A DNA stretch of 36,681 bases from Escherichia phage vB_EcoS-689R5. Position 1 is the stretch's first letter. Every line of letters begins with the position of its first letter. A model generated the notes under the pieces. That model saw nothing but the letters and a program-made list of their open reading frames with translations. It searched no databases and was not told where the DNA came from. The position numbers and the translations under genes are program-made. The DNA lies in the sequence record ON470583; one strand, 5' to 3'. Positions 18,282 to 18,591 of this stretch are shown in pieces.

Positions 18282-18357
18282 GGCCCTTTAGCTCAGTGGT
18301 GAGAGCGAGCGACTCATAATCGCCAGGTCGCTGGTTCAAATCCAGCAAGGGCCACCA
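18282..18357 (+). tRNA. tRNA-Ile2-like (anticodon CAU; ileX/ileZ-type, could also read as tRNA-Met)
   Basis: GGCCCUUUAGCUCAGUGGUGAGAGCGAGCGACUCAUAAUCGCCAGGUCGCUGGUUCAAAUCCAGCAAGGGCCACCA; clean cloverleaf with CUCAUAA anticodon loop. Confidence 0.8.
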
Positions 18358-18358
18358 G

Positions 18359-18435
18359 CCGCCACTAGCTCATCAGGAAAGAGCGTCAACCCTTTAAGTT
18401 GAGTGTGCGAGGTTCGAGTCCCCGGTGGCGGTCCA
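18359..18435 (+). tRNA. Atypical tRNA-like gene (anticodon loop CCUUUAA; isotype uncertain, possibly UUU/Lys-like or a pseudo-tRNA)
   Basis: Perfect 7-bp acceptor stem (CCGCCAC/GUGGCGG), U8-A9, D arm, TUCGAGU T-loop and encoded CCA; but C at position 33 and one T-stem mismatch. Confidence 0.5.
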
Positions 18436-18437
18436 GT

Positions 18438-18513
18438 GCCGACTTAGCTCAGTAGGTAGAGCAACTGACTTGTAATCAGTAGGTCACCAGTTCGATTCCG
18501 GTAGTCGGCACCA
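18438..18513 (+). tRNA. tRNA-Thr (anticodon UGU)
   Basis: GCCGACUUAGCUCAGUAGGUAGAGCAACUGACUUGUAAUCAGUAGGUCACCAGUUCGAUUCCGGUAGUCGGCACCA. Confidence 0.8.
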
Positions 18514-18516
18514 TAT

Positions 18517-18591
18517 GCGGGCATCGTATAATGGCTATTACCTCAGCCTTCCAAGCTGATGATGCGGGTTCGATTCCCGCTGCCCGCTCCA
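18517..18591 (+). tRNA. tRNA-Gly (anticodon UCC)
   Basis: GCGGGCAUCGUAUAAUGGCUAUUACCUCAGCCUUCCAAGCUGAUGAUGCGGGUUCGAUUCCCGCUGCCCGCUCCA. Confidence 0.8.

Follow-up and report, generated by a model that had tools for sequence, protein, structure and literature searches.

A prophage tRNA gene with a UUU anticodon that very probably descends from a phage tRNA-Arg(UCU)

What kind of tRNA has the anticodon of tRNA-Lys, a body like that of tRNA-Arg and a C at position 33, and what could it do in a lambdoid prophage? The question is raised by the second of four tandem tRNA genes (gene 2; its place in the cassette is referred to as slot 2) at 18282-18591 of Escherichia phage vB_EcoS-689R5 (sequence record ON470583). 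The whole stretch that was analysed, 36,681 nucleotides long, is called the window; it matches the prophage adjoining serU in E. coli strain 4/4 (CP023826; 100% over a 481-bp query spanning the cluster). A first-pass annotation had placed four tRNA genes with encoded CCA between the terminator tR' and the holin gene, which agrees with ARAGORN, Rfam and the open reading frame (ORF) and promoter context, and had suggested that the second gene could be a pseudo-tRNA, a suppressor-like tRNA or a tRNA-derived regulator. The central point that it missed, judging from the comparisons below, is that gene 2 is an anticodon-shifted tRNA-Arg(UCU).

Structure and annotation of gene 2

ARAGORN predicts four tRNAs on the + strand with the anticodons CAU, UUU, UGU and UCC, in this order. 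Scored with the Rfam tRNA family RF00005 (gathering score of 29 bits), genes 1-4 reach 72.5, 44.4, 73.8 and 64.9 bits, respectively, so gene 2 lies above the gathering score and its neighbours lie at 65-74 bits. An encoded CCA is found at the 3' end of each of the four genes, and the spacers between them are 1, 2 and 3 nt long. Manual dissection of gene 2, which starts at C18359 (G18358 is spacer), gives a complete cloverleaf with stems of 7/4/5/5 bp, the conserved tRNA bases and CCA: a perfect acceptor stem (CCGCCAC/GUGGCGG), an anticodon stem UCAAC/GUUGA, a T stem CGAGG/CCCCG with an A51.C63 pair, a T loop UUCGAGU, and U8, A14, G18G19 and U73-CCA. The anticodon loop is C32-C33-U34-U35-U36-A37-A38 (CCUUUAA). 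The dissection recovered all the peculiarities that the first-pass annotation had listed (perfect acceptor stem, C33 in a CCUUUAA loop, T-stem mismatch).

C33 takes the place of U33 in all 125 of the 125 retrieved copies of this allele. The anticodon is that of tRNA-Lys(UUU), with U34-U35-U36 followed by the U36-A37-A38 context for N6-threonylcarbamoyladenosine at position 37 (t6A37), and the discriminator base is U73, not the A73 of tRNA-Lys. The D loop (AUCAGGAAA) still has A20, and position 35 is U, so that the anticodon is not an arginine one; judged by these bases, gene 2 is no longer an Arg tRNA by function. ARAGORN and the RefSeq Prokaryotic Genome Annotation Pipeline (PGAP) both call it tRNA-Lys(UUU) or tRNA-Lys, PGAP doing so in all exact-match genomes among the matches listed; PGAP calls tRNAs with tRNAscan-SE. 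Across annotation pipelines, the slot-2 gene is labelled inconsistently (Lys, Thr, Met-neighbour, or nothing).

The Rfam score of gene 2 (44.4 bits) is close to that of argN of phage 2851 (43.0 bits), while Arg(UCU) alleles score 52-58 bits, and its cloverleaf energy is -22.3 kcal/mol as compared to -20.1 kcal/mol for the same argN. The first-pass annotation had regarded the gene as atypical and had set this against a canonical isotype with a normal score. The isotype is indeed canonical according to PGAP (tRNA-Lys) and the Rfam score equals that of argN, but it stays below those of the neighbouring genes.

Origin from a phage tRNA-Arg(UCU)

Related cassettes of enterobacterial prophages, at the loci L212, L254, L142 (20 copies) and L167, have the same gene order and spacers as the window, with a canonical tRNA-Arg(UCU) with U33 in slot 2. 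In L212, thrU and glyT are identical to those of the window and ileZ is 1 nt off; in L254, L142 and L167 these genes are a few nt off. The slot-2 stems of these cassettes are the same or nearly the same as those of the window, which differs by C35>U, U33>C and few other changes, and gene 2 shares its acceptor and anticodon stems with Arg(UCU) alleles. Over 77 positions, gene 2 has 70 identities to the phage tRNA-Arg(UCU) of L247, 68 to that of L212 and 65 to argN of phage 2851, and only 47 to host tRNA-Lys. No common descent with the lysT family was found; cassette position, homology and compensatory structure all place gene 2 in the argN/Arg(UCU) family, and syntenic genes in slot 2 carry UCU in one case and UUU in the other, with a body nearest to the old identity, as in an alloacceptor shift. 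Gene 2 thus very probably arose from a phage tRNA-Arg(UCU) through C35>U, U33>C and a small number of further changes. Since the relatives share order, spacers, neighbours and the stems of gene 2, we infer that the ancestral cassette was Ile2(CAU)-Arg(UCU)-Thr(UGU)-Gly(UCC).

Other alleles surround this change. In E. coli Nissle, the Arg(UCU) allele has G30.U40, an intermediate pair; the locus (L135, 560-900, E. coli Nissle 1917) is a degenerate cassette by an IS4 fragment, with a heavily mutated ileZ, the intact Arg(UCU) gene with G30.U40 and a decayed thrU-like gene. A rare second Lys(UUU) lineage (strain A8 and locus L139) has kept U33 and has U38; its T stem is perfect and its U4-A69 pair is compensated. 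The prophage of L139 also contains four tandem matches to the STnc100 small RNA (sRNA) family (2265-3380, 77-132 bits). A canonical-loop intermediate on the body of gene 2 (UCAAC-CUUUUAA-GUUGA) was absent from IMG/VR, and the four matches to it in Joint Genome Institute (JGI) metagenomes are all unrelated sequences; the U33/U38 form was encountered once in this search.

A similar event is known as tRNA gene recruitment (Saks, Sampson & Abelson 1998), which has also been surveyed in eukaryotes and mitochondria: with its anticodon changed to UGU, E. coli tRNA-Arg(UCU) makes up for the deletion of thrU (Saks 1998, as cited in PMC3923123). The starting tRNA is the same, Arg(UCU), and in both cases there are syntenic orthologues and a body like the old family; here, however, the gene sits in a prophage cassette, the shift is to Lys(UUU) and not to Thr(UGU), and U33 has been lost as well. 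An Enterobacteriaceae survey of 61 genera reports one anticodon shift only, and a literature search turned up no account of an alloacceptor shift among phage tRNAs. Even as a relic, the locus would be a clear bacterial alloacceptor anticodon shift, which is very rare in Enterobacteriaceae surveys, and the allelic series Arg(UCG), Arg(UCU), Lys(UUU) and Thr(UGU) offers ready material for testing tRNA identity rules.

The slot-2 family across prophages

Relatives of gene 2 are present in 2,132 of 5,426 complete E. coli genomes, nearly always in prophages. Among complete genomes, the C33/UUU allele was found in 279 E. coli records at an identity of at least 99% and in 472 at 95-99%, i.e. the lineage is in about 750 complete E. 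coli genomes, as compared to 8 and 3 records, respectively, for the Arg(UCU) parent allele. The C33/UUU lineage is therefore 25-70 times commoner in E. coli than its Arg(UCU) parent, and its backgrounds are mosaic. In a scan of GTDB species, the gene 2 allele was seen only in the representatives of E. coli and Shigella flexneri. The anticodons found in the family are UCG (classic argN), UCU, UUU and UGU, the last in one strain, whose annotation lists it as a second tRNA-Thr; the family also includes an 82-nt gene labelled 'tRNA-OTHER' by PGAP. The latter (L137, 701-782, E. coli RM13322) combines the acceptor, D and T arms of the family with a foreign, longer anticodon arm.

We compared 35 distinct slot-2 alleles, in which the cloverleaf is paired in 97.1% of cells. 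Double compensatory changes are found in 6 of the 21 pairs (3:70, 4:69, 7:66, 27:43, 30:40 and 51:63); none of 500 shuffles reached the observed covariation score, and slid controls gave at most 2 such pairs. The pattern indicates structural selection on the slot-2 family taken as a whole. Twelve alleles have A-U at 51:63, 14 have A.C and 7 have G-C, and by this distribution A51.C63 is the mid-point of an exchange from A-U to G-C across the family. Scores against the general tRNA model are low throughout the family. Phage 2851 argN scores like gene 2 and also carries A51.C63, so two of the three atypical features of gene 2 are family traits.

Slots 1, 3 and 4 and the comparison with Stx phages

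The first-pass annotation had recognised the position of the tRNAs as that of Shiga toxin (Stx) phages, and the slot is indeed the same, after Q, PR' and tR'. It had also seen no toxin genes, and stx genes are absent from the gene content of the window. Its statement that the isotype set differs from ileZ-argN-argO holds for the second half of the cassette, where there is no argO and thrU and glyT are found instead, but not for the first half, in which gene 1 is ileZ and gene 2 is an argN homologue (65/77). The names ileZ, argN and argO reportedly come from the genome paper of phage 933W. As compared to the ileZ-argN-argO cluster of 933W, 2851 and other phages, the window has the same slot, the same gene 1 (0-1 nt apart) and an argN homologue of equal length as gene 2, and across the half made up of ileZ and gene 2 the alignment to ileZ-argN of Stx phages is at 84-91%. 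The differences are the anticodon of slot 2 (UCG there, UUU with C33 here), copies of thrU and glyT in place of argO, the lack of stx, and a lysis cassette of the phage 21 type.

ARAGORN bears out the anticodons given by the first-pass annotation for the other genes (a CAU gene like tRNA-Ile2, Thr(UGU) and Gly(UCC)). Gene 1 matches ileZ of phage 2851 at every position and the EDL933 copy at all but one, is labelled tRNA-Ile in the RefSeq PGAP annotation, and carries the pairs C4-G69 and C5-G68, which are features of tRNA-Ile2; by sequence it is the ileZ of Stx phages. Genes 3 and 4 match chromosomal thrU and glyT, respectively, at 100% identity, and the thrU match recurs in thousands of genomes. 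The host copies belong to the operon thrU-tyrU-glyT-thrT-tufB. The prophage lacks tyrU and about 200 bp of spacer, and its homology to the host operon ends almost exactly at the mature tRNA ends; the TAT spacer before slot 4 is compatible with a deletion of tyrU plus about 200 bp of host spacer. We read slots 3 and 4 as a captured, trimmed fragment of the host thrU-tyrU-glyT operon. The possibility that the cluster is a copy of a host tRNA operon, which the first-pass annotation had raised against its own reading, applies to genes 3 and 4 (exact thrU and glyT, with tyrU excised) and not to slots 1 and 2, which have no identical chromosomal counterpart. The tRNA-Thr of phage 21 was rejected as a source of slot 3: it is diverged, with 49 of 76 ungapped positions identical to thrU.

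A slot-3 thrU copy with G35>U (anticodon UUU, canonical Lys loop CUUUUAA, A73) was observed in L034, L048, L060, L064, L088 and L234. The glyT that goes with this haplotype has a compensated U6-A67 pair, and the haplotype sits behind two different slot-2 alleles, which implies recombination inside the cassette; by its sequence, it is a second, independent alloacceptor shift to Lys. A variant cassette with the order Ile2-Arg(UCU)-Gly-Thr was seen in L209 (1134-1445), where the Thr gene is of the phage 21 type and not a thrU copy.

Codon supply

We compared codon usage of the prophage with that of 36 core genes of the same host strain. AGA/AGG are the most over-used codons in the prophage (about 7.5x), followed by GGA (2.9x), AUA (2.7x), ACA (2.4x) and GGG (2.0x); AAG is at 1.5x and AAA at 1.1x (not significant). 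The four ancestral tRNAs decode AUA, AGA/AGG, ACA and GGA/GGG, i.e. codons that the prophage uses 2-8 times more than the host, and the ancestral slot 2, Arg(UCU), fitted codon compensation best of all slots. Slots 1, 3 and 4 are most likely ordinary codon-supply tRNAs in phage gene expression. The codon-usage check that the first-pass annotation had proposed is thus informative for genes 1, 3 and 4, which it accounts for, but not for a Lys tRNA, as AAA is not enriched. The shift to UUU dropped a decoder that was needed and made one that was not, which means either loss or a change of purpose.

Gene 2 as a possible lysine tRNA

Lysine identity in E. coli lies in the UUU anticodon and A73, any other base at 73 reducing lysine acceptance, and arginine identity lies in A20, C35, U/G36 and A/G73, of which A20 is the strongest determinant (PMC9976931). 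We give slightly less than an even chance to gene 2 being a working Lys decoder derived from Arg(UCU). The intact allele of the window would then fold as a tRNA and be transcribed with its neighbours. Because C35 has been lost, arginyl-tRNA synthetase (ArgRS) would no longer charge it; lysyl-tRNA synthetase (LysRS), with its anticodon-driven recognition, probably would, at an efficiency lowered by U73. Formation of t6A37 needs U36-A37-A38, and the enzyme makes no base-specific contact at position 33 (PMC13276492). As these three bases are present, gene 2 is expected to receive t6A37, and it would then read AAA and AAG. A natural elongator tRNA with C33, yeast tL(GAG), is not substantially impaired (PMC13492127).

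Phage tRNAs have recently been recast as a counter-defence against tRNA-cleaving immunity, with tested cases that come nearly all from virulent phages (T5, T4); the tRNA-Thr of phage 21 is the temperate exception. PrrC and PARIS AriB aim chiefly at host tRNA-Lys(UUU), which P2 Old cuts as a secondary target (PMC12409363, PMC12445682), and gene 2 shares its anticodon with this tRNA. AriB cuts the host tRNA at U39-C40|A41 and requires U16 as well; cleavage is lost with U39A and impaired with A41C or U16C (PMC12409363). Gene 2 has C16 and G39-U40-U41 at these positions. P2 Old, a classic anti-lambda system, needs a paired CNG at 28-30 and 40-42 (PMC12445682), where gene 2 has CAA and UUG and no CNG. 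Gene 2 should therefore plausibly be invisible to AriB and P2 Old; this blindness would come from the Arg-type body with a stem unchanged from its Arg(UCU) ancestors. PrrC cuts between positions 33 and 34, where gene 2 has C33, and the literature search found no data on the effect of position 33 on PrrC cleavage.

If gene 2 brings a benefit, it would most plausibly be a spare tRNA-Lys(UUU) unseen by nucleases tuned to the host tRNA-Lys. That nuclease evasion is the selected benefit of gene 2 is nevertheless unlikely in our judgement, and we are just as doubtful of the bolder form of the idea, in which the recruited Arg(UCU) body would have made a new nuclease-invisible Lys tRNA that has spread to roughly one in seven E. 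coli genomes, with C33 adaptive at the PrrC site. Like gene 2, the tRNA-Lys(UUU) of T5 (against AriB) and the tRNA-Thr(UGU) of phage 21 and others (against Old) are phage-borne, have the targeted anticodon and differ from the host tRNA in the determinants. Those tRNAs, however, are diverged forms of the same isoacceptor for which resistance and rescue have been shown, whereas gene 2 comes from another isoacceptor family, is known from sequence, has C33 and U73, and is often degraded in related prophages. Phage 21 carries a tRNA-Asn(GUU) and its diverged, Old-resistant tRNA-Thr(UGU) in the identical slot (PMC12445682 for resistance). Supplying more host ThrU protected little, if at all, against Old (PMC12445682), and the slot-3 thrU copy should stay Old-sensitive because it is identical to the host gene.

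Should nuclease evasion hold, a change of isoacceptor family would be a general route to tRNAs that are proof against such nucleases (PARIS AriB, P2 Old, PrrC/RloC), and an evolutionary route different from mutating the targeted tRNA, in that the anticodon changes in a tRNA of another family. It would extend the counter-defence idea to temperate lambdoid phages, which P2 Old restricts and which are frequent in pathogenic E. coli, and would make the slot-3 thrU>UUU shift a second case of selection for phage-borne UUU decoders. Two related ideas were rejected. The swap from G30-C40 to A30-U40 cannot be an escape of the Lys form from Old, as the stem was already present in the Arg(UCU) ancestors, and self-immunity against a tRNA nuclease of the prophage itself finds no candidate, as PADLOC came back empty for 10 accessory ORFs and Pfam shows only ordinary lambdoid functions.

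Lesions and rival explanations

We scored new structural lesions, relative to the window alleles, in 114 prophages retrieved by the anticodon arm of gene 2 (the retrieval pattern fixed this arm of slot 2). Lesions were found in 41/114 slot-2 genes (36%) and in 7/114, 8/103 and 7/101 genes in slots 1 (ileZ), 3 (thrU) and 4 (glyT), respectively, i.e. 6-8% in the neighbours. The slot-2 lesions are mainly two haplotypes, one with U8>C and two G.U changes, and the other with a 1-nt D-stem deletion that is typical of PPompW prophages of enterohaemorrhagic E. coli (EHEC) strains; the window allele has none. Counted as independent events, lesions are about as numerous in slot 2 as in each of the other three slots. 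ARAGORN was dropped as a measure of intactness because it is too lenient, detecting slot 2 in 111 of the 114 loci. Within the C33 lineage the anticodon loop is not more conserved than the rest of the gene, and polymorphism was rejected as a test of constraint, since the homologous flanks are as conserved as the tRNAs and the test has no power.

Much of this weighs against gene 2 as a working, selected Lys tRNA: the lesion frequency of slot 2, the two lesion haplotypes, which fall below the Rfam threshold and are left unannotated by PGAP, the clearly tolerated loss of the gene, the ordinary conservation of its loop and the powerless polymorphism test, C33 where U33 is otherwise near-universal, a U73 that is sub-optimal for LysRS, and a shift that gave up the AGA/AGG decoder, the one most needed by the prophage, when Lys codons are not limiting. 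As for nucleases, the UCAAC/GUUGA stem was inherited from the Arg(UCU) ancestor and did not evolve for evasion, so the predicted blindness would be an exaptation at most, and PADLOC run on 10 accessory ORFs returned no tRNA nuclease and no other match. The pseudo-tRNA suggestion of the first-pass annotation is therefore a live rival, and we consider it quite possible, if less than evenly so, that slot 2 holds a tRNA-Arg(UCU) which is dead or dying after two neutral loop mutations (C35>U and U33>C) and persists only as it is wedged 1-2 nt from selected tRNA genes, beyond removal by recombination. The excess of lesions over the neighbours in the same prophages speaks for such a relic, as do the high frequency reached by the C8 and D-stem-deletion alleles at the cost of their tRNA calls, the combination of C33, U73 and A51.C63, the loss of the AGA/AGG decoder with no codon-usage reason for a Lys tRNA, and the finding of two loop changes in about 9 substitutions, which is near the neutral expectation, in a loop that is not specially conserved. 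The changes UCU>UUU, UGU>UUU and UCU>UGU keep charging matched to decoding, so purifying selection would pass them and the recurrence of UUU needs no positive selection; recurrent UUU may reflect selection, or Arg/Lys/Thr shifts being the only anticodon changes without mistranslation. On the other hand, the intact allele scores and folds like the accepted argN, C33 is compatible with function elsewhere, the derived allele far outnumbers its Arg(UCU) parent (25-70 times) on mosaic backgrounds, most lesion copies come from two haplotypes with independent events alike in all four slots, and the separate UUU lineage of A8 and L139 has perfect stems and a compensated U4-A69. Taken together, a relic is almost equally likely as a working Lys decoder.

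The other explanations are far less probable. Gene 2 as a non-translational RNA (a decoy or inhibitor of a nuclease, a modification enzyme or a synthetase, or a source of regulatory tRNA fragments) has a small chance: the conserved promoter and tRNA-like fold would suit it, C33 and U73 would be of little consequence, and inhibition of AriB by over-expressed viral tRNAs is a possibility raised in PMC12409363, but the absence of AriB determinants makes gene 2 a poor AriB decoy, the resistant phage tRNA-Thr did not keep host tRNA-ThrU from being depleted in the P2 Old system, where rescue needed its decoding anticodon (PMC12445682), and the high lesion frequency speaks against a strongly selected role. 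A slightly smaller chance goes to an ambiguous or mis-charged tRNA that would partly insert Arg (or another residue) at AAA/AAG, a conservative Lys>Arg recoding. The retained A20, the strongest E. coli Arg determinant (PMC9976931), and U73, which is not the Lys discriminator, would allow this, but C35, a major Arg determinant, is lost, U73 is not the A/G73 that contributes to Arg identity, and suppressor tRNAs with U35 insert lysine (PMC9976931). Very improbable is the suppressor-like tRNA of the first-pass annotation, in which a register shift would make U34 the turn nucleotide and let U35-U36-A37 read UAA: C33 followed by a run of U makes this a formal possibility only, while the loop has the standard 7 nt, the anticodon in register is UUU and no stop anticodon, and the ancestor is an ordinary Arg(UCU) tRNA. 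In known frameshift suppressors the loop is 8 nt long.

Genomic setting of the cassette

The features around the cassette are collected in Table 1. The TTGCAR and TATTAT hexamers and the 17-nt spacing of the cassette promoter, whose -10 hexamer ends 9 nt before gene 1, are conserved across phage backgrounds, and the spacer sequence and the upstream DNA diverge; because the hexamers and spacing are kept across divergent backgrounds, this suggests that the cassette is transcribed independently of Q, besides late read-through. Around the conserved tRNA module the flanks are mosaic. As a whole, the cluster belongs to a known type of lambdoid tRNA cassette: it is a tRNA "moron" with a promoter of its own, at the usual lambdoid position between tR' and the lysis genes.

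Table 1. Features in and around the four-tRNA cassette (window coordinates)
Feature	Coordinates	Strand	Evidence or remark
RusA	17036-17401		upstream of Q and the cassette
Late antiterminator Q gene	17392..18087	+	Pfam PF06323 Phage_antiter_Q, E=8e-92; RefSeq at the identical locus: 'bacteriophage antitermination protein Q'
PR'-like late promoter, TTGCAA-17-TATATT	18071..18099	+	consensus scan
tR'-like intrinsic terminator, GC-rich stem then T run	18145..18180	+	inverted repeat; + strand T run read from the sequence; the terminator scan itself reported 18145-18180 on the - strand only
Sigma-70-type promoter of the cassette itself, TTGCAA-17-TATTAT, GC-rich discriminator	18244..18272	+	consensus scan
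Slot 1, tRNA-Ile2-type gene (CAU), ileZ equivalent	18282..18357	+	ARAGORN, Rfam 72.5 bits, PGAP
Slot 2, tRNA gene (UUU), C33, A51.C63, U73	18359..18435	+	ARAGORN, Rfam, manual dissection
Slot 3, thrU copy, tRNA-Thr(UGU)	18438..18513	+	100% identity to chromosomal thrU
Slot 4, glyT copy, tRNA-Gly(UCC)	18517..18591	+	100% identity to chromosomal glyT
Perfect 11-bp hairpin, 24-nt loop, just 3' of the cassette	18598..18643	+	inverted repeat
Perfect 14-bp hairpin, 44-nt loop	18651..18722	+	inverted repeat
Terminator-like hairpin and T run, closing the cassette before the holin	18795..18822	+	terminator scan
Class II (S21-type) holin, first gene of the lysis cassette	18883..19098	+	ORF listing; RefSeq 'class II holin family protein'; phage 21 layout identical

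The 290 bp that separate the tRNAs from the holin gene are non-coding. The 11-bp hairpin moves with the module and shows 0-2 differences where the flank is homologous, and both perfect hairpins are conserved like the tRNAs wherever this is so; neither had a match in Rfam, which for the 14-bp hairpin holds at E<=1. Possibly, the two are processing sites, an sRNA or an attenuator. Downstream of the holin are YdfR/DUF1327, a signal-arrest-release (SAR) lysozyme and Rz/Rz1. The leader between the PR'-like promoter and the terminator (18103-18176) shows a weak, sub-threshold similarity to the prophage sRNAs isrK/isrJ (22-24 bits), which fits a lambda-6S-like late leader RNA.

Other features of the window

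The early region of the prophage contains a DicF sRNA at 7007-7058 (-; 76.7 bits) and a hok/sok-type toxin-antitoxin locus at 14542-14867 (+; sok at 112 bits, with a 70-aa Hok-like ORF). A YfbU-domain ORF at 20942-21481 (-), located between the lysis genes and the HNH/terminase genes, is moron-like and had no PADLOC match. At the prophage boundary, serU (tRNA-Ser(CGA), 2492-2581) adjoins an integrase gene (2634-3659, -), and to the left of serU lie a gene for an M90 peptidase (mtfA-like; 1601-2398, -), a tRNA-Asn gene (1425-1500, -) and a second integrase gene (1-1044, -); this layout of window positions 1-3659 suggests tandem integration sites.

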